Assembly (NCBI RefSeq): GCF_028464065.1
Contig: NZ_CP116808.1
Span: 1,327,886-1,391,885 of the forward strand
Direction: 5' to 3'
Length of the DNA: 64,000 bases
From: Saprospira sp. CCB-QB6
GTDB taxonomy: Bacteria > Bacteroidota > Bacteroidia > Chitinophagales > Saprospiraceae
Every line of letters starts with the position of its first letter. The stretch's first letter is position 1. A model generated the notes under the pieces. It saw only the letters and a program-made list of their open reading frames with translations. It was not told the origin of the DNA and ran no database searches. Position numbers and translations under genes: made by a program. Shown piece by piece: positions 5,316 through 63,995 of the stretch.

Positions 5316-5456
5316 TTGGGGCCTGCGGGCCAAAGGCCCGCCCTTACGCTTCGGGGCTCGCTGTTCGCTCGGCCCTGCGGCGGCAAAGCCGCCTGGGTCT
5401 GGCCTTCGGCCACCCCTGCGCATCAGTAGGCCGCTCAACGGCCTTGTTTTGCTTTG
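5316..5456 (+). repeat. REP/MITE-like element copy (forward), first of an inverted pair
   Basis: TTTGGGGCCTGCGGG...GGGGCTCGCTGTTCGCTCGGCCCTGCGGCGG...GGTCTGGCC. Confidence 0.65.
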
Positions 5457-5730: not shown

Positions 5731-7425
5731 ATGAAAGCTTGGAAACTTCGCTCTTTTAATACCACTACCGCTCAGCAGCTGCAAGAGGCGCTGAAGGTGC
5801 ATCCTGTTTTTTGCCAGTTGTTGGTCCAAAGAGGGGTGCATGATTTTGAGCAGGCCAAACAATTTTTTCGGCCCAATTTGGCCAATTTGCATGCGCCTAA
5901 TTTGTTGGCGGGTATGCCTGCTGCTTTGGCGCGTTTGGGGCAGGCCTTGGCGCAGGGCGAAAAAACCCTACTTTTTGCCGATTATGATGTCGATGGCCTT
6001 TCCGCTTTGCTCATTTTACATCGCATATTGGACCAAAAGCTGCCTTTAGATTATCTTTTGCCCGATCGTTTTGAGCAGGGTTATGGTCTTTCGGTTTATG
6101 CGGTAGAGTTTGCGCAGGCGGTAAATTGTTCGCTCATTATTGCTTTAGATTGTGGTAGTCGGGACCATAAAGCGTTGGCATTGGCCCAAAAGCTGGGCAT
6201 TGATGTGATTATTGTGGATCATCATGAATTGCTACGTAAGCAGCAGCCCAAAGCAGCGGCTTTAATCAACCCCAAACAAGCCCAATGCGGCTATCCCAAT
6301 TCGGAAATTACGGCGGCGGGCTTGGCCTTTAAGTTAGCCCAAGCCTTGGTGGAGCAAGAAAATTGGCCAGAGGCGCCACTTTGGCCGCTTTTGCAGTGGG
6401 TAGCGCTCAGTTTGGCGGCAGACCAAGCCCCATTGACTGGCGAAAATCGAATTTTGGCCCATCATGGTTTGCGTTTTTTAGAAGAGGAGGGAGAAGAAAT
6501 TTTGCAGCAGATTCAGGAGCGTTTGGAGCGGCCAAGGCCTTATAATATGCAGGCGCTTTATTTTGGTTTGGTGCCCTTGCTCAATGCGCCGGGGCGGATG
6601 GGGCATGCTCAAACGGCTGCTGATTGCTTATTGGCCAAGGGAGAAAAGGAGCAAAAGAAGAAATTGGAGCTTTTGTTTTTGCAAAATCAGGCGAGAAAAA
6701 GGGCTCAGGAAGAGGTTTATCAGGAAATCCAACGAATATTACAAGAGCAGGGGCAATGGTTAGAGCGTTCGCTTTTGTTGTTGGCCCAGCCGCATTGGCC
6801 GCTTGGTGTTTTGGGCATTTTGGCCAGTCGATTGAGTAAAGAATGGGGGCGGCCCTGTCTTCTTTTTGGGCAAAATAAAGCGGGTAACTGGCAGGGATCG
6901 GGTCGTTCTCCTGAAGGGCAAGAATTATTGCCTGCGGTAGAGGCTTGTTCTGCGCAGTTATTACAATATGGTGGGCATAGTCGGGCCTTGGGTTTACAGC
7001 TCAAAAAAGAAGAATTGGCTGCTTTTGAGGCGGCCTTAGAGGCCCAGCTTTATCAGCAGTTGAGTCGGGGGCCAGAGCCAGAAGCCATAGCAATAGATGC
7101 TCAGTTAGATTTTTCTTTAATTGGGCCAAAGTTTTGGAAATTGCTCAAGCAATTTGCGCCCTTTGGGCCGGGCAATCCCAATCCTTGTTTTATGAGTAAA
7201 AACCTTTGTGATAGTGGCTATTCCAAGGCGATCAATCAGAAGCATTTGCGTTTATTTTTGCGGCAGGGGCAAGGGAGTCCGCAAGAGGGAATAGCGTATA
7301 ATTTTATGGAACATTTTGAGCAGATCAAGAGTCGCAAGCCCTTTCATTTATGTTATCAATTGGAAGAGCATTTTTATCGGGGGCGGCGGAAATTGCAATT
7401 TGTGGCTAGAGACATCAAGTTTTAG
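5731..7425 (+). CDS. recJ: single-stranded-DNA-specific exonuclease RecJ
   Basis: DHH-family motifs DYDVDGLSAL and VIIVDHHE; about 560 aa with DHHA1-like C-terminal region. Confidence 0.75.
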   Translation: MKAWKLRSFNTTTAQQLQEALKVHPVFCQLLVQRGVHDFEQAKQFFRPNLANLHAPNLLAGMPAALARLGQALAQGEKTLLFADYDVDGLSALLILHRILDQKLPLDYLLPDRFEQGYGLSVYAVEFAQAVNCSLIIALDCGSRDHKALALAQKLGIDVIIVDHHELLRKQQPKAAALINPKQAQCGYPNSEITAAGLAFKLAQALVEQENWPEAPLWPLLQWVALSLAADQAPLTGENRILAHHGLRFLEEEGEEILQQIQERLERPRPYNMQALYFGLVPLLNAPGRMGHAQTAADCLLAKGEKEQKKKLELLFLQNQARKRAQEEVYQEIQRILQEQGQWLERSLLLLAQPHWPLGVLGILASRLSKEWGRPCLLFGQNKAGNWQGSGRSPEGQELLPAVEACSAQLLQYGGHSRALGLQLKKEELAAFEAALEAQLYQQLSRGPEPEAIAIDAQLDFSLIGPKFWKLLKQFAPFGPGNPNPCFMSKNLCDSGYSKAINQKHLRLFLRQGQGSPQEGIAYNFMEHFEQIKSRKPFHLCYQLEEHFYRGRRKLQFVARDIKF

Positions 7426-7436
7426 TAGTCTAAAAA

Positions 7437-7476
7437 AGGAAAGGGCTAAGCTTAAACAGCTTAGCCCTTTTTTAGG
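7437..7476. terminator. bidirectional terminator between recJ and the giant gene
   Basis: AAGGGCTAAGC-TTAAACA-GCTTAGCCCTT flanked by A- and T-runs. Confidence 0.6.
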
Positions 7477-7479
7477 TCA

Positions 7480-10400
7480 TTAGCCCAAATCATTTTCCAT
7501 TAAGCCGCCGCCATTGAGGCCAGCGCCCAGGTCTAGTTGGACCTCAATTTGGTCAATAAGGCTTTCTCCGGCTTTGAGGTTTAGGCCAGAGAAATCGATA
7601 CTAATATCTCGGCTATTTCCGCCTTCTTCGATAGGGACAGAAAACTGTCCAGCTTGCAGGTTAACTTGTCGGCTACTTTCCAGATATTCAAAAGAATTAG
7701 TATTGAACTTCAGGTCGGCGATTTGGAACTCTACGGCTGCTTGGTGGATCCAGTTTGCTTGGCTATCAGAAGTAAAGAAAGAGCCATTTCCTTGGATTTG
7801 GAGTTGGTTATCTTGGTAAGTGTAGCTTCCTTGGAGCGTAAACTCATCATTTGTCATGCTAAGATAATCGAGCAGGGCTTTGGGTTCGGAGCTACCGCCT
7901 TTAGTAAAGCCGAGTTGGTCTTCGATTCCTTCATAGACGACATTTAGTTCTTCGAAGGCTTCGAAATGTTCTTCTTGGGCCATTTCGAGTTCTTCTTGTA
8001 ATTCGTCTAATTCGGCTCGAATATCGTCTAGTTCGGCTTGTTCCTCTGCAGAGAGTTGATTTTGGCGGGCTTCTAGGCCTTCTTTGGCGATAGTTTTCTC
8101 TTTAATTTGGTCTTGAAGATCGAGGGTTGCATCTTCTGCGGCATAGAAAAGTTCTTGATCTTGGGCGACCACATCAGTATATTCAAAAAGCAGGTCTAGG
8201 ACGGGGTCGTATTGATTGAGTAAAGAAAGGCTATTCACATCTCCATCTTTAATCAGACCTGCTTCGAGTTGTTCGTGTAATTTTTCTACTGCGCTATATT
8301 CTGCATTACCAGAGCCCACACCATCTACGCCAGTATTTCCTTGTAAGACCTCTTGAATAGCTGCGGTATAGCCAGCTTGGAATCCCTCCTTATATTGTTG
8401 AAAAAAGGGTTGAATTTGGCTTTGGTAGAGTGCTTGAAAGTTAGCTTTTAGTTGTTTCCGAATAGATTTATCGAGGCTACGTTTACCATCTTTATCAAAG
8501 TCGGCAATAAAATTATCATATTCTGCTTGTAGGGCTAAAACTTGATCATCAATGTAGTCATTTTGGTTTTGGCCAGGGGCCAAAGCGGTAGGATGCTCCT
8601 GTCCAAAAATGCGAATTAGATCAGCGTAGGCATTAGTAACTGCAACTGCTAAAGCTTCATCTTCATCAGAGGAAGACGTTTGTTGGGCGGCCTCTGATTT
8701 TTCTTTTTTGATTAGTTCATTTAAGGCCTTTCTCATCTCGCCAACTAAGCGGTAGCGACCTTTTTCCATTTCGGCAGAAGAGGAATTGGGACTATTGTAA
8801 GAATCTTCGATCAGGAGTTCCCTTGCTTTTTCGTAGCCTTGGACATATTTATCTTGGCCTACATTTCCGGCAGCGGCTAGGAGTTGAGTTTGATAGTTAG
8901 TTGCTTCGGCTAGGGCGGCTCCTTCTTCGGCTGTTTCGGAATTATTGATTCCTTCTACTAGGCCTTTTCGGGCACCTCGGATATATCCTTCTTTAAAACT
9001 TTGCAGTTGTTTTTCCCATTCGGCAATTGTCTTTCGCATGAATTGTTTGTCCTCATTAGACAGCTGTTCTGTTAGGAGGCCTTCTGCTTGGCTAATGAGT
9101 GTTGTAGTGAGTTCTTGATGATTTTCTAGGGGCGTAGCATTTTGGTCAAACCCTAATAGATTTTGAGCTTGGCCTTCAATTTGGCTTAGGATATTAGGGA
9201 TTTGGCTATCCTCTAATTCTTCGGCGGCCGCTTGGCCTGTTTCTTTTGCGATTTGAATAATTTTGGGTAAGAATGCTTTTAAGTCTTCTAGCATAGTAGG
9301 CACTCCGTTCGCTTCAAACTCTCCTTGGAGGTTAGCCATTTGGCTGGGGCTAGCTTGGCGTTGGTCTCGGCCATAAGAGTAACCTTTTTCATAGGCATTA
9401 GCATAGGCATCGCCTAAGGTAGTTCGCAGCTCTTCTATTCTTTGGTCGAGGACAGAGCTTGACTTTTTGGTTTCTCCATTGATTGTTTGGTTGAGTCCAT
9501 CTTGCCGTCCAGTTGTGCGACCAAGGTGAAACTGTCCTTCTAATTCAGAGGCATAAGACAAAGTAGGATCTTTGGGCGTATAGCTTAATTCCTCAAAATT
9601 ATCTCCTTCTTTTTCGTTAGTTGCGGCTAAATAGCCTTGTTGGTAGCCTAAGTTATAGGCTTCTCCCTTATCAAAAAGGTATTGATAGCCATTTAGGAAA
9701 CCCTCCTGTGTTGGTCCATCTAGTTTTTCGGCTTCTGCTTCCTTTTGGGATTCAAAATTTTCGCCATTGAGCAAAGCTTTTTTGTGTGCAGCAATATCTT
9801 TTCGGGCGATTTCTTGGCCCAATTGATAACCTCTATCGTGGCCTCCGCCTTGTATTTTTCGATTAACTTCTTCTGTACTAATTAGGCCAGCTTGTAGCAT
9901 TTGGGCCATTTTATAGCCTTCGGCCTTACCTGCATTAAAAGCGGCTAGGGTATTTTTATCGGCTTGGGCATATTCTGTATCCTTGCCTGCTGCAGCGGCC
10001 AGCGCCTCTTCTTGTCCGGCCAGTGGAGGATATCCTTCTACTGACTGATAACCAAAGAGGAGACCGTCTTGACGGGCTTTTTCGGCACTATCTTGTTTAG
10101 CCACTTTGGCTGTTGCATCTTCTAATGCTTGCTGGTAACCTTTTTCGATTTCCGCCATTTGGCTATCGACCTTAGCTAGTGGATCTTCGGGAGCGCTTTC
10201 TTTTTTAGGATTAGCAGCAGCTTTTTGAGCCTTCTCTTCTAATTCTTTGCGTTTTTTGCTCAGTGCAGCTTGCATTTTAGCTTCTTTTTGGGCCAAAATC
10301 TCATTAGCTTGAGTTTTAGCCGCAGCTCCAATTTGGGCTTCGGGAGCTTCCTCATCGCCATAAAGTTTTAGGCTTCCACTAAGGTCGCTAGCATCTTGTC

Positions 10401-13400
10401 CATTAGCAAGCTTTGCTATAAACAACCAGTTATCATAATCTAGGTCATAGCCTTCCCTAAATTCATCAGACTGGCCAATAGAAGCTGCTTGAGCGCTATC
10501 ATTTTCGTAGCCCTCAATCATTTGGGAAAGTGCTTGTCCTCTAAAATTATCGTATTGGCTAGCTTGGCGGCCGGCGCTATATCCTTGTTGATAATGAGAG
10601 GTAGGCGTAGCTTGTTTTTGTTTACCCGTCATTGCGTCGTCATAGCCTTCAAAATATTGCTTTCCCTCTCGTTCTCCTGCACTTTTCCCCACGCGATAGC
10701 CCTTAGCAAAAGCCATTTCTAGCTTTTGGGTATCGGCTTTTCCTTGCATTTCTTCTTGGATCACTTTGGCTAAGCCTTCTTTTTTCTTTCTCCAAGCTTC
10801 ATCCGGCGTTTGACTAGGGCGTTCTTTTTGGGCTGTACTTTCATACTTAAACCAAAGCCCATAACCATATTCGCGGCCTTTTTCTACATAATCAACACCT
10901 CCAGCAGTTTGGCCAAATTCCTCTTTAGCATTTCGGAGTTCTTGAGCTTCTGCTCGTTCTTCTTTTGTTTGAGCTTGTTTTCCCCCATCTGCTCCACTAT
11001 AGACAGTTTGATTATAGCCAATATAATAGCCTTTTTCGAACTCCTCGCCTTCTGCTTTGGCATTTGTAAAGGCTTCTTCTACTTTAGCGTCTACTTCTGC
11101 TTTTTTGCTGGCATCGCCTTGAGCGGCTCGATAGTGGTCATAAAAGAGTCCTCCCATATGTCGTCCAGCTTCATAACCTTTTGCTTTTGGGCTATCGGCA
11201 GAGACGGACATTTCTTTATCGACTAGTTTTTGCTTTTCAACATTATAATTTGTATTAAATGCGTGATAATAGCCTGTACTGAACTCTTTTTTGACATTTT
11301 CGTCATTGAGTTGTTCATCGATAGTGGCCAGATTTTCCTCAATCTTTTCGATTTTGGCAGTTAAGGCCTCTTTTTCTTTAGGATCTTCTGTTTGTTTGAG
11401 GTCCTTCTTATAGCGGTCTAAATTTACAGTAGCAGCCGCAGCAATTTTGCCAATATCCTGGCCTTTTTTGTACTCTACACTATTTGTTTTAGCTTTTTGC
11501 TCATTATCTAGCTTTTGCTGCTTAAACTTATTGTAAGAGGCGTTAAACGCATGAAAATAGCCTACCTCAAAGCTTTTCTTTTGCTCTGCAGTTTGTTCTT
11601 TGTCCTTTCCTTCTGCAAAATACTGTTTAGCGGAATCGGGGACAGGAGGAAGGTTTTCTCCCAATTCAGAGAGTGGTAGCGTTCCTTTCAGGACTTGTTT
11701 TGCTTTTTCTTCAGAAGACATAGCGGCCAAGGTTCCCATAACATGGCCTACCGCATAATGGGGATCTTTTTTTCGTTCCTCTTTTTCAGCTTTTACTTTA
11801 GTTTCTTTGCCCTTCATATAGGAGGCATTGAAGCCATGGTAAAATGCGCGAGAGTAAAGCTTTTTGGGATCGTCTGCGATAGGTTGGCCAGAAGCATCTT
11901 TATTATCGTCGGCATAGTTTGCCGCTTGCTTGCCCTGCTCTTTAGTCATGCCTTCTGGGGCTTTGCCTTGGCCTTCTGCTAAACCAATATTGTAGCCCAA
12001 CTCATATCCTTTGCGATAAGTGGGATTTTCCATGAGTTCAGCGGGGCCGGGCATTGATTTTTTGACCGCGGCTGCGCGGGCCTGCATATAAACTGCATTA
12101 AATGCGCGATAATAAGCGACTTGATACGTTTTTGAGCGATTATCTACAGCGGCTTTAAGCACCTTAGCTCTTTCTTTATCCTCCGCTTTGCTGCTATTAC
12201 TTTTTACGGCTGATTCTGTCCCATCTTTAGTCCCTTCCTGGGCTTCTGGGTCGGTAGCCATTTTTTGTTGTTCTTCAATTTGGGCTGCTTCTACTTTTAG
12301 TTTTTGGCCTTCTGGATAGCCTTGGTTGAAGCCTTGATAAAAACCCGTTTGATATTTTTGGCTTTTACTAGCAATAACAGCTCTTTGTGCTTCTACATAA
12401 GCATCAGCAGTTTCTCCTTCTGCAAAGGGAGCCACATTCATTTTTCCAGATTCATCCGTCGTTACTTTTTTACCTAATCCTCCAGACCGGCCTACATCTA
12501 AGCCAAAAGCGCGACCAGCTTCTAGCTCTTGTTCCTCAGCACTTTCTTCGGCAGTTTTTGCTACTGGTCCCATATTCATGCGGGCGGCAAAAGCGGCTCC
12601 CGCCTCTTGTCCTTTTTGGTCTCCAGTTGCTTCAGTTGCAGCAGCTTCTCCACCAGCGGCGGAGTTTTGCTGTTTATTTTGCGGATTACCCGTTGCCGTT
12701 GTTTCTCCTGTTTTGGCATCTCCTTTAGTTTCACCGCCGATCTTAGCTTCTTCGGGACTAACTTCTGTATTTTTTTGGCTTGCTTGGTTCGCAAGTTCTT
12801 CGGATTTAGCTTCTTCTTCAGCCGAAATATTTTCTTCTGATTTAGTCTCTTCTACAGCTCCTTCGGCTAGGGTTTCTTCTAGGGCGGCTTGGAGTTCAGC
12901 TGCAGCGGCAGAGATCTCATCTTGCTCTAGCGTTTCTTCTATAGCGGCATCTAGCTCCGTTTCGTCATAAGTGGGAATCGGTTCGCCTAAGGTTGCGGCA
13001 ATTTCTGCATTGAGTTCAGCCTCATTAAAGGCGGCGCCTAGTGGAGGCAAATCGTCATCATTGGCGGCAGCTGTTTTGCTGCTGCTCTGCTCCTCCTCTC
13101 CTTCTTGCAAAGAGATGCCCTCAGCCAACTTCTCAATACCACTATTTAGGCTAGCCGCCGAGAGTTGTTCGTTGAGAGGGCTAGCCGATTCGTTGAGGGG
13201 TTGGCTAAACTCCTCTTGGGTACTTTCTTGGTGGAAACCTTCTGCGGGAGTTTGGACGACCGCATTGGCTTGGCTATCGACTTGTTCAAAAGCAGATTGA
13301 ACAGATTGCAACTCTTCATTGGCCTCAAATTCTTCGAGGCTTTGGTAGAGCTGTTCGTAAATGCGTTGCTTTTGGTTTTCTTGCGAAGTATTTTGGTTTC

Positions 13401-13410
13401 CCTTAGACAT
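7480..13410 (-). CDS. giant (1976 aa) acidic intracellular repeat protein of unknown function
   Basis: No signal peptide. N-terminal about 330 aa is Glu/Ala/Ser-rich low complexity. About 20 copies of a K-x-[YF]-x-x-G-[YF]-[YF]-x-[GA]-F-N-x-x-Y / E-K-G-Y-x-x-G-Y module (e.g. KYQTGFYQGFNQGY, KTYQVAYYRAFNAVY, KLYSRAFYHGFNASY, SFEVGYFHAFNASY, EFSTGYYHAFNTNY, FEKGYYIGYNQTVY) separated by Lys/Glu-rich predicted coiled-coil linkers. Beta-rich ~130-aa C-terminal domain. Confidence 0.7.
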   Translation of the reverse strand: MSKGNQNTSQENQKQRIYEQLYQSLEEFEANEELQSVQSAFEQVDSQANAVVQTPAEGFHQESTQEEFSQPLNESASPLNEQLSAASLNSGIEKLAEGISLQEGEEEQSSSKTAAANDDDLPPLGAAFNEAELNAEIAATLGEPIPTYDETELDAAIEETLEQDEISAAAAELQAALEETLAEGAVEETKSEENISAEEEAKSEELANQASQKNTEVSPEEAKIGGETKGDAKTGETTATGNPQNKQQNSAAGGEAAATEATGDQKGQEAGAAFAARMNMGPVAKTAEESAEEQELEAGRAFGLDVGRSGGLGKKVTTDESGKMNVAPFAEGETADAYVEAQRAVIASKSQKYQTGFYQGFNQGYPEGQKLKVEAAQIEEQQKMATDPEAQEGTKDGTESAVKSNSSKAEDKERAKVLKAAVDNRSKTYQVAYYRAFNAVYMQARAAAVKKSMPGPAELMENPTYRKGYELGYNIGLAEGQGKAPEGMTKEQGKQAANYADDNKDASGQPIADDPKKLYSRAFYHGFNASYMKGKETKVKAEKEERKKDPHYAVGHVMGTLAAMSSEEKAKQVLKGTLPLSELGENLPPVPDSAKQYFAEGKDKEQTAEQKKSFEVGYFHAFNASYNKFKQQKLDNEQKAKTNSVEYKKGQDIGKIAAAATVNLDRYKKDLKQTEDPKEKEALTAKIEKIEENLATIDEQLNDENVKKEFSTGYYHAFNTNYNVEKQKLVDKEMSVSADSPKAKGYEAGRHMGGLFYDHYRAAQGDASKKAEVDAKVEEAFTNAKAEGEEFEKGYYIGYNQTVYSGADGGKQAQTKEERAEAQELRNAKEEFGQTAGGVDYVEKGREYGYGLWFKYESTAQKERPSQTPDEAWRKKKEGLAKVIQEEMQGKADTQKLEMAFAKGYRVGKSAGEREGKQYFEGYDDAMTGKQKQATPTSHYQQGYSAGRQASQYDNFRGQALSQMIEGYENDSAQAASIGQSDEFREGYDLDYDNWLFIAKLANGQDASDLSGSLKLYGDEEAPEAQIGAAAKTQANEILAQKEAKMQAALSKKRKELEEKAQKAAANPKKESAPEDPLAKVDSQMAEIEKGYQQALEDATAKVAKQDSAEKARQDGLLFGYQSVEGYPPLAGQEEALAAAAGKDTEYAQADKNTLAAFNAGKAEGYKMAQMLQAGLISTEEVNRKIQGGGHDRGYQLGQEIARKDIAAHKKALLNGENFESQKEAEAEKLDGPTQEGFLNGYQYLFDKGEAYNLGYQQGYLAATNEKEGDNFEELSYTPKDPTLSYASELEGQFHLGRTTGRQDGLNQTINGETKKSSSVLDQRIEELRTTLGDAYANAYEKGYSYGRDQRQASPSQMANLQGEFEANGVPTMLEDLKAFLPKIIQIAKETGQAAAEELEDSQIPNILSQIEGQAQNLLGFDQNATPLENHQELTTTLISQAEGLLTEQLSNEDKQFMRKTIAEWEKQLQSFKEGYIRGARKGLVEGINNSETAEEGAALAEATNYQTQLLAAAGNVGQDKYVQGYEKARELLIEDSYNSPNSSSAEMEKGRYRLVGEMRKALNELIKKEKSEAAQQTSSSDEDEALAVAVTNAYADLIRIFGQEHPTALAPGQNQNDYIDDQVLALQAEYDNFIADFDKDGKRSLDKSIRKQLKANFQALYQSQIQPFFQQYKEGFQAGYTAAIQEVLQGNTGVDGVGSGNAEYSAVEKLHEQLEAGLIKDGDVNSLSLLNQYDPVLDLLFEYTDVVAQDQELFYAAEDATLDLQDQIKEKTIAKEGLEARQNQLSAEEQAELDDIRAELDELQEELEMAQEEHFEAFEELNVVYEGIEDQLGFTKGGSSEPKALLDYLSMTNDEFTLQGSYTYQDNQLQIQGNGSFFTSDSQANWIHQAAVEFQIADLKFNTNSFEYLESSRQVNLQAGQFSVPIEEGGNSRDISIDFSGLNLKAGESLIDQIEVQLDLGAGLNGGGLMENDLG

Positions 13411-13557
13411 AACTTATAAGGCTTAATTTGGAGCAAGGTAAAGGTATTGCATAGGCCCTAACAAATTACTAACAAAAGGGCCCTTTGCCAAAACAAAGAC
13501 TATATATTTTTCTTTTCTTTTCCGAATTGCGTACTTAGCAGTTCTTTGAGGGCCATT

Positions 13558-13722
13558 TGCGGCTTTTTTTGGCCTAGCGATGTGCAGGGGTGGCCGATAG
13601 GCCAGACCGAGGCGCCGAAGGCGACGAAGGGCCGAGCGAATAGCGAGCCCCGGAACGTAGCGCCGCAAGCGGCCCGATGAGCATTAGCGAATTCTGGGCT
13701 GCGCAGCGGAGGCCCCAAATCA
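13558..13722 (-). repeat. REP/MITE-like element copy
   Basis: GCAGGGGTGGCCGATAGGCCAGACCGAGGCGCCGAAGG...GGGCCGAGCGAATAGCGAGCCCCGG...GGCCCCAAATCAAAA. Confidence 0.65.
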
Positions 13723-13741
13723 AAATAAAAAGAAATACATC

Positions 13742-14245
13742 ATGAATAGCAAGAAAATTTGGAGCTTAGGCGCTTTACTTTTGTTGGGTTTTAGCCTAGA
13801 GGCGCAGATTGTAGACAATAGTCATTTGATTAACCTCAAAGACGTTCTTCCTTATGTCTATATCTTTTACGTGCTTACTTTCCTGGCCCTTAGTTTACTC
13901 ATTATGAAGCTTTTGAAGCCTCAAATGAAGGCTTATTTGCTTTATGCGGCTTGTATTTTGGCCATATTGGGGGCGGCCTTTACCAATCAGGCCTTTAATA
14001 AGATTCAGGATGAGCAACTGCCGGGGGTAGCGGGCAGTGATATTCCGAAAGAGGAGATGAGTGATTATAGTCGGCAGATGGTAGAGAAGCAAGAGCGGGA
14101 AGTATCGCAGCAGAAGATGGCCAATTTCTGGATCATTGCCATTCCAAACATTATTATGTTGGGTTTGGGGGTTGTCTTAGACATCAAAGCCCGTCAATCA
14201 GGGACTGACGGGCAACAAGTTCGTGGTCGATATGACGGAATGTAA
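13742..14245 (+). CDS. hypothetical membrane protein (signal/TM plus 2-3 TM helices)
   Basis: Hydrophobic segments; no recognisable domain. Confidence 0.4.
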   Translation: MNSKKIWSLGALLLLGFSLEAQIVDNSHLINLKDVLPYVYIFYVLTFLALSLLIMKLLKPQMKAYLLYAACILAILGAAFTNQAFNKIQDEQLPGVAGSDIPKEEMSDYSRQMVEKQEREVSQQKMANFWIIAIPNIIMLGLGVVLDIKARQSGTDGQQVRGRYDGM

Positions 14246-14665
14246 TTAGCGGAGGCGGTCAGAGTCCTTAACGAGTTGGTCATCGGCATTGATGGCGCGA
14301 TTGGCCAAAAAGAGGAACAACATAGATAGAACCGGGGTAAAAAGGCCTAAGCCTGCGCTAATTTCCTCTGCAATATTCATGGTCCAATAAGAAGCTAGTC
14401 CCATAAGGATCAAGCAATTGGCTAGGCTCAAATTATTGAGTAGCATTTGTAGTTTACGATTCTTAAAGAGAAAGATCGTGGCCAAGCTGAGCACCGTTGG
14501 AAAAAGGGCGAGCAGGAGCAAGATAAACTGGTCCATCAAGTCATAATCGCCATCTTGTAGGGGGCCTTCAGCGGTGCTGGGGGCTGTTCCAAAAGGAAAA
14601 ACGAAGAGTAGGGCTAGCGCAAGGGCCGCCAATAACATGTAAATTGTTTGAATACGTTGTATCAT
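14246..14665 (-). CDS. hypothetical 4-TM membrane protein
   Basis: Four hydrophobic helices; its stop codon abuts the stop of the convergent upstream gene. Confidence 0.4.
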   Translation of the reverse strand: MIQRIQTIYMLLAALALALLFVFPFGTAPSTAEGPLQDGDYDLMDQFILLLLALFPTVLSLATIFLFKNRKLQMLLNNLSLANCLILMGLASYWTMNIAEEISAGLGLFTPVLSMLFLFLANRAINADDQLVKDSDRLR

Positions 14666-14722: not shown

Positions 14723-15916
14723 ATGAACAAGTCTGCTCCCATCTATATCCTAGCAGCGAAAAGGAGTCCTATTGGTCGTTTGTATGGGGCTTTGCGAGAT
14801 ATTCGGCCCGATGATTTAGGCTTAGCGGTCTTGCAGCAAATGACTGATTTTTCGGTTATGGATCTAGAAGCGATTTATGTAGGGGCGGCCAATCAGGCGG
14901 GAGAAGACAACCGAAATTTGGGGCGACAATTAGTTTTTTTGGCCCAATGGCCCCCTCATATTTGGGGCATAACAGTTAATAGCCTTTGTAACTCTGGTCT
15001 AGATGCCTGTATTCAGGCCTTTAGGGCCTTGGCTTTAGGAGAGCAAGAATTAGTTTTGGCGGGTGGGGTTGAAAGCATGAGCCGCAGCCCCTTTGTTCGT
15101 CTAAGGGAAGAAGATAATGAAGTAGATAGCACCATTGGTTGGCGATTAACCAACCCCTACCTTCCCGCTCCCTATGCTCCTTTGAGCATGCCCGAAACAG
15201 CAGAATTATTAGCGCAAAAAAGAGGGATTAGTCGCGCTGAACAAGATGCCTATAGCCATGCTAGTCGGGCCCGCTTTTTAAAGGCGCAAACTGAAGGCGC
15301 TTTTTGTAAAGAATTAGTCCCTATTACTGACCGAGCTGGACAGCTAGTTTTGGCCCAAGACGAACAAGCCCGACCACTCCCCTTATCCCTTTTAGAGAAG
15401 CTCCCGCCCCTGGTCAAAAATGGCCAGTTTATTAGCTTAGGTAATGCCGCTCGCTTAGGCGATGGAGCCGCCTTTTTGCTTTTGGCCCACAAACAATATT
15501 TAGATAGAGAAGGTGGAACGGCCTTGGCCGAAGTTCTTGCCTGGAAAAGCGTTGCTGTTCCTCCAGAAGACATGGGAGAAGCCCAAATTATTGCTGTTCA
15601 GCGCCTGTTGCAGCAAGAAGGACTTAGCAGTAGCGAAATTGATTTTTTTGAATTTGCAGAATCTTTTGCCCTCCAAGGCATCCTAGCCGAAAAGGCTCTA
15701 GCTCTTCGGCCCGAACAACTAAACCCCTATGGCGGCAGCCTAAGTATGGGGAACCCCTTAGGTATGGGCGGAGCCCGCATTGTGGTCTCTCTAGCCCATG
15801 CTTTGGCTCGTCATCCAAAAGCAAAATATGCTATAGGTGCTAGCTCGGCAGGCTTGGGTTTAGGAACGGCTATTTTGTTAAAGAAACATGTAACAAAAAG
15901 TCAAATAGAGGGTTAA
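14723..15916 (+). CDS. thiolase-fold (acetyl-CoA C-acyltransferase-like) protein with substitutions at two canonical catalytic positions
   Basis: N-terminal ILAAKRSPIGRLYGAL and nucleophile region VNSLCNSGLDA match thiolases. The catalytic His motif G-H-P-x-G-A-S-G-A-R reads GNPLGMGGAR (His to Asn). The C-terminal CxGGGxG motif reads SSAGLGLG (Cys to Ser). Alignment was done by eye. Confidence 0.6.
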   Translation: MNKSAPIYILAAKRSPIGRLYGALRDIRPDDLGLAVLQQMTDFSVMDLEAIYVGAANQAGEDNRNLGRQLVFLAQWPPHIWGITVNSLCNSGLDACIQAFRALALGEQELVLAGGVESMSRSPFVRLREEDNEVDSTIGWRLTNPYLPAPYAPLSMPETAELLAQKRGISRAEQDAYSHASRARFLKAQTEGAFCKELVPITDRAGQLVLAQDEQARPLPLSLLEKLPPLVKNGQFISLGNAARLGDGAAFLLLAHKQYLDREGGTALAEVLAWKSVAVPPEDMGEAQIIAVQRLLQQEGLSSSEIDFFEFAESFALQGILAEKALALRPEQLNPYGGSLSMGNPLGMGGARIVVSLAHALARHPKAKYAIGASSAGLGLGTAILLKKHVTKSQIEG

Positions 15917-17954: not shown

Positions 17955-18200
17955 TTGCTGCTGTTTTGGGGCCTGCAGCGGGCGGTTACTCCCTTTGGTC
18001 GTCGAACTGCAGCCTAAAGGCCTTGTTGTCGTTGCGCAGCTCGCTGCTGTTTTGGGGCCTCCCGCCTGCGGCGGGCGCTACGTTTCGCAGCTCGCTATTC
18101 GCTCGGCCCTTCAGCGCTTCGCGCCTCGGTCTGGCCTGCGGCCACTGCTGCACATCGCTAGGCCAATTGGCCCCCTGGGCCAAAGGCGGCTCCGCCGCCT
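17955..18200 (+). repeat. REP/MITE-like element, about 1.5 tandem units
   Basis: Two successive TTTTGGGGCCT... starts; the second half is near-identical to the copy inside the TPP riboswitch (40078-40205). Confidence 0.65.
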
Positions 18201-27498: not shown

Positions 27499-27640
27499 TT
27501 GGGGCTGCCCCTCGCTCTGCTCGGGTCGGGCTGTCTCACAGCTCGCTGTTCGCTCGGCCCTGCGGCGCCAAAGGCGCCTTGGTCTGGCCCTTCGGCCACC
27601 CTTTTCCATCCCTCAGCCTGCGGGCGCTGCGGCCAGTGGG
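27499..27640 (+). repeat. REP/MITE-like element copy
   Basis: TTTTGGGGCTGCCCCTCGCTCTGCTCGGGTCGGGCTGTCTCACAGCTCGCTGTTCGCTCGGCCCTGCGG...CATCCCTCAGCC. Confidence 0.75.
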
Positions 27641-40054: not shown

Positions 40055-40281
40055 CACTTTAGGGGTGTTTAGTTTTTTTTTAGGGGCCTCCCGCCTGCGG
40101 CGGGCGCTACGTTGCGGGGCTCGCTATTCGCTCGGCCCTTCGCAGGCTTCGCCTGCTCGGTCTGGCCTACGGCCACCCCTCCACATCGCTAGGCCAATAA
40201 CGCCCAGCCACTAAGCAAAAACTAAACTGAGAATAGACCCTTATCACCTGATGCAGCTCATACTGCCGTAGGGAAAAGTGC
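40055..40281 (+). promoter_or_regulatory. TPP (thiamine pyrophosphate) riboswitch with a REP element inside the P3 loop
   Basis: AGGGGUG at 40061-40067. The 3' core CUGAGAAUAGACCCUUAUCACCUGAUGCAGCUCAUACUGCCGUAGGGAA (40227-40275) is near-identical to the thiM consensus CUGAGAAAUACCCGUAUCACCUGAUCUGGAUAAUGCCAGCGUAGGGAA. P1 is CACUUU/AAAGUG. P3 is UUUAGUUUUU/AAAAACUAAA flanking the inserted repeat. Confidence 0.8.
40078..40205 (+). repeat. REP/MITE-like element copy located inside the TPP-riboswitch P3 loop
   Basis: TTTTAGGGGCCTCCCGCCTGCGGCGGGCGCTACG...GCTCGCTATTCGCTCGGCCCTTCG...GGTCTGGCC; near-identical to 18060-18200. Confidence 0.7.
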
Positions 40282-46257: not shown

Positions 46258-46446
46258 GAGATCAAGGCCTTTAGGCGGTTTAGCAGGCGGCGAAGCCGCC
46301 TGCAAAGGAGCGAAGCGACTTGGCCTAGCGATGCGGAGGGGTGGCCGTCAGGCCAGACCGAGGCGCCACAGGCGCCGAAGGGCCGAGCAGCCCTGCGAGC
46401 CCTGAAGCGTAGCGCCTGCAGCTTTGCTGCAGGAGGCCCCTCAAAA
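46258..46446 (-). repeat. REP/MITE-like element copy (reverse)
   Basis: GCGGAGGGGTGGCCGTCAGGCCAGACCGAGGCGCC...GAAGGGCCGAGCAGCCCTGCGAGCCC...GGCCCCTCAAAAAA. Confidence 0.65.
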
Positions 46447-62957: not shown

Positions 62958-63995
62958 ATGTTTAGATTTACGGAACTACAGGCGGCAGAACCGCCGCAGG
63001 CTGAGGGATGGGCAGCAGTGGCCGCAGGCCAGACCGAGCCGCCTTTGGCGGCGAAGGGCCGAGCGAATAGCGAGCTGCGAGACAGCCCGACCCGCAGGCC
63101 CAAAGGGCCGAAGGGGCAGCCCCAAAAAAATGGTTTCTACCTTTTCGCACTACTTATTTTCGGTTTATTTTTAACTGCTTGTCGGTCGGTGCCCAAGGGT
63201 TGGAGCAGTTATAATCGGGGGCAATTTTGGTATAAGAGCATGAGGGAAAGGGAGGCCGACTCGCTGTTTTTGCCTCAAGAGGGGGATCAATTAGAGATCA
63301 ATTATAGTATTTGGAAGGGAGATAGTTTGCTTTTGAGTTCTGCCCAGCAAATGCAGCCTGTTTTGGTAGAAATGCCCTCGGCCAAGGCACATAATTTATT
63401 TACGGAGGCTTTGAGTTTAATGGCTGAAGGGGATAGTTTAGAGGTTTTGGTTTTGGCGGAAGAGGCAGCGGATATTTTGGGCCCTTATGCGGCTGAATTT
63501 GGGGCGAAAGAGCGGGTGCGATTTGGGTATCGGCTCAAAACGCTAAAAAGCAAGGCACAATTGGAGGCAGAGATTCAAGCGGAGCGGGCAAGGGTAGCAG
63601 AGCGGCGAGCTTGGATTTTGGCAGAATTGGAAATAGATAGCAGTCTGAATCAGTTAGCGGGAAAAGGGAGAGAAGGACTTCGGTTTAAGAAGCTAAAGTC
63701 TAGTAAAGGTCCAAAACTTCAGCTTGGGCAGCTGGCTCAAATCCAATATATTTGTCTCCTACCTAATGGAGAAATCATAGATGATAGTTTTTTGAGTATG
63801 CGTCCAATTTGGGTAGAATTAGGTGATCTCAAGATGATTCGGGGTTGGTCCTTGGCCCTACAAGAATTTGCAGAGGGGGAACAAGGGCTAATTTATTTGC
63901 CAGCAGCTTTAGCTTATGGGCAATTGGGGAATCCGCCTTTTGTGCCGCCTAATAGTCCACTCATATTTTATATAGAAGTACTGACCACTAAATAA
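62958..63995 (+). CDS. FKBP-type peptidyl-prolyl cis-trans isomerase lipoprotein (start uncertain because a REP copy occupies codons 8-57)
   Basis: C-terminal FKBP domain GQLAQIQYICLLPNGEIIDDSF...PIWVELGDLKMIRGWSLALQEFAEGEQGLIYLPAALAYGQLGNPPFVPPNSPLIFYIEVL; lipoprotein signal FYLFALLIFGLFLTAC after the repeat. Confidence 0.6.
   Translation: MFRFTELQAAEPPQAEGWAAVAAGQTEPPLAAKGRANSELRDSPTRRPKGPKGQPQKNGFYLFALLIFGLFLTACRSVPKGWSSYNRGQFWYKSMREREADSLFLPQEGDQLEINYSIWKGDSLLLSSAQQMQPVLVEMPSAKAHNLFTEALSLMAEGDSLEVLVLAEEAADILGPYAAEFGAKERVRFGYRLKTLKSKAQLEAEIQAERARVAERRAWILAELEIDSSLNQLAGKGREGLRFKKLKSSKGPKLQLGQLAQIQYICLLPNGEIIDDSFLSMRPIWVELGDLKMIRGWSLALQEFAEGEQGLIYLPAALAYGQLGNPPFVPPNSPLIFYIEVLTTK
62988..63130 (-). 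repeat. REP/MITE-like element copy lying inside the 5' end of the FKBP lipoprotein ORF
   Basis: GGCTGAGGGATGGGCAGCAGTGGCCGCAGGCCAGACCGAGCCGCCTTTGGCGGCGAAGGGCCGAGCGAATAGCGAGCTGCGAGACAGCCCGACCCG...GGGGCAGCCCCAAAAAAA. Confidence 0.7.

Follow-up and report, generated by a model that had tools for sequence, protein, structure and literature searches.

A giant motif-rich helical protein of Saprospira and its relatives, linked to a Cis7 homologue and possibly a ruler-like component of a contractile injection system

We analyzed a stretch of 64,000 nt from Saprospira sp. CCB-QB6 (contig NZ_CP116808.1, positions 1,327,886 to 1,391,885), referred to throughout as the window, in which one open reading frame (ORF) at 7480..13410 on the minus strand encodes a giant protein of 1976 aa. 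In relatives of Saprospira, the gene for this protein lies next to a homologue of Cis7, a protein of contractile injection systems (CIS). Here we describe the gene, its product and its family, and weigh a possible role as a ruler or tube-lumen protein of such a machine against other explanations.

A constrained gene encoding an acidic helical protein

The ORF is single and uninterrupted, begins with ATG and encodes a product identical (100%) to PPO43_05125, a hypothetical protein of Saprospira sp. CCB-QB6. Its orthologue in S. grandis DSM 2844 has 1979 aa, is ~86% identical and lies in unchanged synteny; the same length recurs in strain Lewin and in other S. grandis records, everywhere annotated as a hypothetical protein. 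A codon comparison of CCB-QB6 with S. grandis gave a ratio of nonsynonymous to synonymous substitution rates (dN/dS) of 0.09 overall and 0.04-0.12 across six segments. All nine gap columns in that comparison are in-frame and confined to the first 233 codons. Orthologue length, collinearity of homologues, dN/dS and in-frame indels together rule out several fused genes or a frameshift artifact, an outcome that the original prediction had named as fatal to it. The ORF is one real gene under purifying selection, and the spurious reverse-strand ORFs noted across it are indeed present. Directly past its stop codon and before the convergent recJ lies a terminator-like hairpin (7440..7470, minus strand) with a 13-bp stem and a T-run.

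The giant protein has a net charge of -141. It contains no transmembrane segment, its strongest 19-residue hydropathy window reaching only 1.02, and no signal peptide, its N-terminus being polar (residues 1-40 average a hydropathy of -1.45). When we looked for a sorting domain of the type IX secretion system, no Pfam or NCBIfam family matched, the C-terminal region included. A secreted adhesin is ruled out by the absence of export signals, and the earlier placement of the protein inside the cell holds. Its sequence suggests a cytoplasmic, mostly alpha-helical protein.

The first 300 residues (12511..13410, minus strand) form an acidic region rich in Glu, Ala, Ser and Gln, with a charge of about -50 and 8-22% hydrophobic residues, which on its composition is probably disordered. 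This region is poorly conserved, the family alignment there consisting mostly of gaps and its length ranging from ~250 to 480 aa across members; its dN/dS against S. grandis is nonetheless 0.118. The start of the structured part is marked by a GLGKKVT motif within a small predicted beta-hairpin at aa 311-328 (12427..12480, minus strand). Residues G311, L312, G313, K314, K315, V316 and T317 are invariant in one family alignment (A1), and the pattern is present in seven of nine members. An AlphaFold 2 (AF2) model of aa 300-830 placed strands at model residues 15-19 and 25-29 (hairpin aa 314-328), followed by nothing but helices, 15-36 aa long, up to aa 830. The mean predicted local distance difference test score (pLDDT) of this model was 75.

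Beyond the hairpin, a helical region at aa 340-1700 (8311..12393, minus strand) carries ~17-18 positionally conserved aromatic-glycine motifs; AF2 predicts its helicity up to aa 830, and aa 831-1739 appear helical from composition alone. Two long acidic helices follow at aa 1742-1780 and 1788-1833 (aa 1742-1833; 7912..8187, minus strand), predicted by AF2 with a pLDDT mostly of 77-95 in this block. The protein ends in a C-terminal domain at aa 1836-1976 (7483..7905, minus strand), delimited from a 12-sequence alignment and AF2, which is the most widely shared part of the family and in which Y1849, G1861, G1874, G1876, G1921, P1926 and Q1954 are invariant in that alignment. AF2 assigned about nine strands and a final helix to it. 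A beta-rich C-terminus had been proposed; strands are indeed predicted over ~140 aa conserved in the family, but with low confidence (pLDDT <55).

We searched the protein for aromatic-glycine motifs with a strict and a loose pattern and compared the counts with shuffled sequences. The strict pattern [GA][YF][YF]x[GA][FY]N occurs six times (0.00 expected), starting at about aa 356, 432, 522, 617, 713 and 794. The loose pattern [YF]xxG[YFAL]xx[GA] occurs 20 times (0.6 expected), a count reached in 0 of 2000 shuffles. The ~20 copies first reported are thus those of the loose form, while only six modules satisfy the strict one. Self-BLAST of the protein revealed no internal or tandem repeat at E<=1.

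All six strict modules were located by motif scan and family alignment on the minus strand. Module 1 (aa 353-366, YQTGFYQGFNQGYP; 12313..12354) contains a triple GxxxG. It is followed by module 2 (aa 429-442, YQVAYYRAFNAVYM; 12085..12126) and module 3 (aa 519-532, YSRAFYHGFNASYM; 11815..11856). Modules 4 (aa 614-627, FEVGYFHAFNASYN; 11530..11571) and 5 (aa 710-723, FSTGYYHAFNTNYN; 11242..11283) are conserved in 11 of 11 family members, and module 6 (aa 791-804, FEKGYYIGYNQTVY; 10999..11040) completes the series. In the AF2 model of aa 300-830, each motif lies at the start of a helix. Between aa 350 and 810 we could discern an 'A' helix with the pattern Ar-x-x-G-Ar-Ar-x-[GA]-F-N-x-x-Y (Ar, aromatic) and, ~35 residues on, a 'B' helix with Y-x-x-G-x-x-x-G, the pairs forming degenerate units of 76-96 aa. 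The spacers between motifs, earlier taken for probable coiled coil, are helical in the AF2 model, but heptad periodicity was found only at aa 678-710, that is in 33 of 1506 residues (by a simple home-made score, not COILS or Marcoil).

The motifs are retained through deep divergence: at ~17-18 sites the aromatic and small residues are kept in 9-11 of 11 family members despite 20-26% identity. Invariance across the family is strongest at GxxxG glycines with i/i+4 spacing, namely G360/G364, G393/G397, G468/G472, G555/G559, G904/G908/G912 and G1161/G1165. We compared ten sub-segments with Pfam at E<=10; apart from noise, two sub-threshold similarities emerged, both at aa 345-370 only and so at module 1: Yae1_N (PF09811; E=0.0087, 16.2 bits against a cut-off of 27.5) and SMN_YG-box (PF20635; E=0.066, 13.4 bits against 21.3). 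As in YG-box and other glycine-zipper helices, Tyr or Phe and Gly alternate at i/i+4 on one helix face, for example in YQTGFYQGFNQGY (aa 353-365). Helices with FliH-type GxxxG repeats are another kind of glycine zipper. The resemblance to Yae1_N and the YG-box is one of motif type, not family, since the scores lie below the curated cut-offs. The giant protein also differs from both in repeating the motif ~18 times over a ~1500-aa helical protein, usually with an F-N-x-x-Y extension that is foreign to those families. From the type of motif, rather than from any family membership, the modules are probably helix-helix packing sites of the glycine-zipper type.

A family linked to a Cis7 homologue

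To our searches the family is small and unannotated. A word-indexed search of 5.8 billion proteins returned only three members, and a HMMER search of 1.84 billion cluster representatives with a profile of aa 777-1976 returned 19 proteins at E<=1e-3. Full-length matches among these have 1957, 1976, 1984 and 2179 aa. The remainder are fragments, besides two distant members of 2293 and 2316 aa, which match the profile in the C-terminal part only and carry the same motifs. Together these define a collinear family whose members span 1957-2316 aa and about ten lineages; about eight of the lineages lie beyond Saprospira species, with full-length proteins at 20-26% identity. Members P0001 and P0003, for example, align in one collinear BLAST segment over residues 281-1971. 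We found the family only in Saprospira, in an Aureispira-like contig and in metagenomic relatives; scans of two metagenome contig sets and three of IMG/VR gave no usable loci for relatives.

All members are unnamed or labeled 'hypothetical' in databases, and the family has no curated model. For the giant protein itself, no Pfam or NCBIfam family was found at E<=1 and PADLOC gave no match, nor did any Pfam, NCBIfam or PADLOC model match any other member tested. PHROGs yielded one non-significant match to a family of unknown function (E=0.088), and tblastn against 50,697 phage records yielded none. Sequence-profile searches of the PDB, with aa 777-1976 and with the 12-sequence C-terminal profile, returned only coiled-coil noise. 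A Foldseek search of the PDB and BFVD with the aa 300-830 model gave no match with E<0.1, and TM-scores did not exceed 0.18. The claim that the module belongs to no characterized family is therefore upheld in these searches, which turned up no curated repeat family that would account for it.

The giant gene is single-copy and lies in a conserved order of thiolase, DUF4293, membrane protein and giant. The membrane protein is the product of a divergent gene at 13742..14245 on the plus strand. Its 167 aa are predicted to begin with a signal-like segment and to contain three hydrophobic stretches, with a basic RGRYD tail that is conserved; they match nothing in Pfam or PADLOC. Orthologues with 30-88% identity adjoin the giant gene in all six loci for which upstream sequence is available: the window, S. 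grandis (L001), L004, L008, L010 and L011, where L numbers denote the loci of relatives.

On the other side of the giant gene, relatives carry two genes that connect the family to injection systems. On the contig of P0003 and in L004, L006, L007 and L011, the giant gene, a gene for a protein of ~97 aa and a gene for a 258-261-aa protein with CIS_tube and LysM domains follow one another on the same strand, except that in L007 the ~97-aa gene does not lie between the two and its sole copy is upstream. The 258-261-aa protein matches Pfam CIS_tube (PF19266) besides its LysM domain. Against solved Cis7 structures it matches All3321 of the thylakoid-anchored CIS (tCIS; 7b5h) at E=7e-26 and Alg7 of AlgoCIS (7aeb) at E=7e-23, with a weak match to Afp7. 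In L012, from the Aureispira sp. metagenome-assembled genome GCA_024222455.1, the contig begins with the pair of ~97-aa and Cis7-like genes, so that the position of the giant gene there would be just outside it; in L010, a related contig, 36 aa of the ~97-aa gene survive as a remnant immediately past the giant gene. The order of giant gene (or its expected position), ~97-aa gene and Cis7 homologue is thus found in at least three divergent lineages.

The small proteins of this island form a family of ~97-101 aa. Their N-terminus is hydrophobic, their conserved core reads W-D-T-x-T-G-K-S and QLPSSPLY marks the C-terminus, and sometimes two copies flank the giant gene (L004 9045-9338; L006 9360-9662 and 16004-16309; L007 8498-8800; L011 9688-9981; L012 358-651). 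No Pfam family matches these proteins, and the Saprospira window does not encode one.

In L011, a contig of 1.3 Mb, the gene order runs from thiolase, DUF4293 and membrane protein through the giant, the 97-aa protein and the Cis7-like protein into unrelated genes, and its upstream synteny is that of the window. Because of this shared synteny, we take the island to be old and vertically inherited. It is not part of a complete CIS cluster. Judging from gene content, Saprospira and one Aureispira-like genome have lost the Cis7-like and ~97-aa genes and kept the giant.

Contractile machines are a hallmark of this clade. Saprospira and Aureispira are ixotrophic predators that kill Vibrio and cyanobacteria with an unusually long (420 nm) and unusually stable CIS. 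Aureispira kills its prey with a type VI secretion system (T6SS) of subtype iv (T6SSiv), whose extended length is uniform at 420 +/- 8 nm; the structures known as 'rhapidosomes' are likely the same machine, and a related cluster is present in Saprospira grandis (10.1101/2024.01.29.577165). Because adjacency to a Cis7 homologue is conserved across lineages at 20-26% identity, in a clade defined by that machine, we consider it likely that the giant family works with the T6SSiv.

An alternative is that the protein has nothing to do with a CIS and is a cytoskeletal or scaffold rod, built like spectrin as a string of helical bundles and tethered to the membrane by its partner, which would help these bacteria, helical and multicellular, to glide or to shape their filaments. 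The degenerate A-B units, in which a motif helix precedes a GxxxG helix, do resemble rod-forming helical repeats. The neighborhood in Saprospira is one of housekeeping genes, and the giant has been retained where the Cis7-like neighbor is lost. However, the recurrence of a Cis7 homologue beside such diverged giants is hard to ascribe to chance, canonical coiled coil is almost absent, and neither sequence nor fold searches found similarity to a known cytoskeletal family. We therefore regard a CIS-unrelated rod as very unlikely. The original prediction had proposed a cytoskeletal, scaffold or phase-separating protein. The scaffold survives only as an assembly scaffold or ruler of a machine. Our results give no indication of the other two: canonical coiled coil is nearly absent, the gene is linked to a Cis7 homologue, and the clade builds a 420-nm T6SSiv. 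Its description of the protein is thus confirmed with corrections, and its functional interpretation is partly supported.

A possible ruler or lumen protein of the injection system

Tape-measure proteins set the length of contractile particles. In AlgoCIS, each residue of the ruler Alg14 accounts for 0.229 nm, and across systems the slope is 0.2156 nm per residue; the tape measures of extracellular CIS (eCIS) have mixed alpha/beta N- and C-terminal regions around an all-helical middle (10.64898/2026.05.27.728243). Like the Cis14, Afp14 and Alg14 tape measures, the giant protein is very large, acidic and cytoplasmic. Its architecture is likewise that of an extended helical middle between small ends of mixed alpha/beta structure: in the AF2 models (covering aa 300-830 and the residues after 1739) a beta-hairpin is followed by helices, two long helices and C-terminal strands with a helix. 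In relatives its gene lies upstream of cis7, as those of tape measures do. We tentatively favor the reading that the giant is an injection-system-associated ruler or tube-lumen protein of tape-measure type, because this explains its size, architecture, position relative to cis7, lack of export signals and core-gene-like inheritance. The absence of export signals is consistent with assembly in the cytoplasm, and single copy with fixed synteny is what would be expected of a vertically inherited core component, not of a shuffled effector.

Multiplying residues by the published coefficients gives lengths on either side of that of the clade's T6SSiv. The full-length window protein (1976 aa) would correspond to 426-452 nm, compared with a measurement of 420 +/- 8 nm for Aureispira, the sister genus, and its structured part (1666 aa) to 359-382 nm. 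For the Aureispira-like member P0014, the structured part (1894 aa) would correspond to 408-434 nm and the full length (2316 aa) to 499-530 nm. The predicted lengths bracket the measured 420 nm and do not pin it down.

An annotated tape measure from another member of the phylum provides a comparison. On plasmid pAT3 of Aureibacter tunicatorum (NZ_AP025308.1; L013 6885-18416), a 3843-aa protein (WP_309942634.1) is annotated by RefSeq as 'contractile injection system tape measure protein'. Its gene heads a complete CIS cluster in which a Cis15-like ATPase, DUF5908, a Cis7 homologue, VgrG, PAAR, gp25 and more follow. The succession there of tape measure, Cis6 and Cis7 is partly paralleled by the giant gene and Cis7 homologue of the relatives. 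It has a net charge of -107 and contains no aromatic-glycine motifs. Judged by this protein, giant size, acidity and a location upstream of cis7 are all normal for CIS rulers in Bacteroidota. At the published coefficients, its 3843 aa would imply a particle of ~800 nm, and the NCBIfam models used did not match it.

If the giant is a ruler, its C-terminal beta-rich domain would dock in the baseplate hub beside the tube-initiator rings (Cis5/Cis7), and the helical region of ~1500 residues would span the lumen of the tube during polymerization, setting a length of ~400 nm. The ~18 aromatic-glycine zipper helices ([YF]xxG[YF]xxG, YG-box-like) might keep neighboring helices or chains in register, and the variable acidic N-terminal tail would lie at or past the distal end. 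What the data show is a real gene under purifying selection, conserved motifs and domain order, linkage to a membrane protein and in several lineages to a Cis7 homologue, and a residue count that fits the published coefficients; presence of the protein in the machine and a role as its ruler are inferred.

Several observations weigh against a ruler. In Saprospira, the giant gene is not encoded within a CIS cluster: its ~97-aa and Cis7-like neighbors are absent from that locus, and a scan of 39 other larger ORFs of the 64-kb window gave no match to a CIS family. In the relatives that have the Cis7-like gene, the 10 kb past it hold no other CIS genes. The protein has no sequence or profile similarity to tape measures. 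Compared with the Aureibacter tape measure it gave E>0.5 in BLASTP and a probability of 0.1% in hhalign, and searches with known tape-measure models (Pfam, NCBIfam, PHROG), of phage records and of the PDB returned no significant match. It also differs in its 250-480-aa low-complexity N-terminal tail, an addition of ~300 probably disordered residues in the window protein compared with described eCIS tape measures, and in its ~18 aromatic-glycine motifs. Full-length P0014 overshoots the measured length, and dropping the tail from the calculation is a post-hoc choice. The predicted template modeling score (pTM) of the aa 300-830 model, 0.36, establishes no tertiary arrangement. Finally, the role may already be taken by a different, canonical gene, the Aureispira cis14, which is placed within the T6SS gene cluster (Lien et al.). 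This putative tape-measure gene was struck by two of three spontaneous insertion-sequence insertions that abolished assembly (10.1101/2024.01.29.577165).

The tail raises a further alternative, as a disordered N-terminal domain is equally a hallmark of CIS lumen cargo. The giant could be a cargo or effector of the T6SSiv tube lumen, with the acidic N-terminus as its loading sequence, the Cis7-like protein as an adaptor or chaperone by analogy with Hcp and its effectors, and the membrane protein as an immunity or accessory factor. Cgo1 and Cgo2 of AlgoCIS, Mif1 and Pne1 of the metamorphosis-associated contractile structure (MAC) and Pdp1 and Pnf of the Photorhabdus virulence cassette (PVC) offer the parallel: here too a disordered-type N-terminus precedes a structured body that would occupy the lumen, and Cgo1/2, Pdp1, Pnf and Pne1 need such a system-specific domain for loading. 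Effector genes often lie away from any CIS cluster, as the giant gene does, and no effector has yet been identified for the Aureispira system. Glycine-zipper motifs have been described in the translocation domain of a T6SS effector (PMC10240207).

The giant is, however, much larger than these cargo proteins, differs from them in that its gene neither belongs to nor adjoins a CIS cluster in Saprospira and, with no Pfam domain at E<=1, has neither a toxin or enzymatic domain nor DUF4157. Its motif helices are polar, with a maximum hydropathy of 1.02, and not membrane-like. The family is single-copy, collinear and vertically inherited, with fixed synteny and strong purifying selection, unlike polymorphic effectors, and the N-terminal sequence is not conserved between members. 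The membrane-protein gene is divergent, whereas immunity genes are usually co-transcribed. On balance we think a cargo or effector unlikely.

The membrane partner also invites the idea that the giant serves the T6SSiv as a different accessory or structural component, neither ruler nor cargo. It might, for instance, be a cytoplasmic scaffold which, together with the three-segment membrane protein and the ~97-aa protein (membrane-bound or secreted), would anchor or position the baseplate or the trans-envelope complex at the inner membrane. The pairing of giant and membrane protein is constant, and the basic RGRYD tail of the latter, if cytoplasmic, could bind an acidic partner. In the T6SSiv of Aureispira, densities that anchor it at the inner membrane are still unassigned, and what makes up the trans-envelope complex is not known (10.1101/2024.01.29.577165). 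The Aureispira-like islands also hold genes for a 1928-aa beta-repeat protein and for VWA and PP2C proteins. Yet a helical protein of ~2000 aa is far bigger than an anchor needs, and conserved size and location upstream of cis7 fit a ruler better. Such an accessory role seems improbable to us.

A more specific form of the ruler or lumen reading can be proposed, though we hold it doubtful: the giant would be an undescribed, non-canonical T6SSiv lumen protein of ~2000 residues, unrelated to the Afp14 type, in which ~18 zipper 'staples' set the exceptional 420-nm length or reinforce the unusually stable inner tube, and which is encoded away from the main cluster together with a membrane partner and a Cis7 paralogue of its own. 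Should the protein prove to be a ruler, contractile machines would have a second way of controlling length, unrelated in sequence to the first. The ~18 YG-type zippers, long acidic tail and dedicated membrane partner of the giant would set it apart, and the zippers would offer a handle to engineer particle length and cargo capacity. If the giant is itself what Lien et al. call cis14, some of this has already been published, though that protein is uncharacterized. As a clade-specific protein of 2000 residues linked to a Cis7 paralogue, the giant is a concrete candidate for one of the T6SSiv parts still missing, among which are effectors, membrane anchors and several structural densities. If it acts outside the machine, it is an uncharacterized giant family with a clean oligomerization motif.

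Neighboring genes and a dispersed repeat

In the Aureispira-like contigs, the giant and Cis7-like island is closely followed by a gene for a 1928-aa protein (L012 2690-8476; L010 10320-15491) with Gly/Ser/Thr/Asn-rich beta-repeats of ~300 aa, and then by PQQ-propeller-like, VWA and PP2C genes. Neither a Pfam match nor an obvious signal peptide was found for the 1928-aa protein. As a beta-repeat rather than helical protein, it is ruled out as a ruler; it may be a T6SSiv fiber or antenna component, or part of a regulator module.

The neighbors of the giant gene in the window are housekeeping genes: recJ (convergent, 5731-7425), the DUF4293 and thiolase genes, and genes for a STAS protein, GDPD, arginase, thiamine biosynthesis and transporters. 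The DUF4293 membrane protein (14246-14665, minus strand) and the thiolase (14723-15916, plus strand) keep their positions in L008 and L011. This synteny beside the pair of membrane protein and giant has been preserved while the giant diverged to 20-25% identity.

The divergent intergenic region between the giant gene and its membrane partner (13411..13741) spans 331 nt and is presumed to hold the promoters of both, although none was identified in it. It also contains one copy (13569-13664) of a GC-rich dispersed repeat, placed within the divergent promoter region 5' of the giant gene. This repeat is ~70-100 nt long, with 85-91% identity between copies, and occurs at no fewer than 10 mostly intergenic sites in the window, among them 40103-40197, 18074-18166, 46320-46388, 5352-5424, 27541-27601 and 63026-63075. 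It looks like a repetitive extragenic palindromic (REP) element or a miniature inverted-repeat transposable element (MITE).

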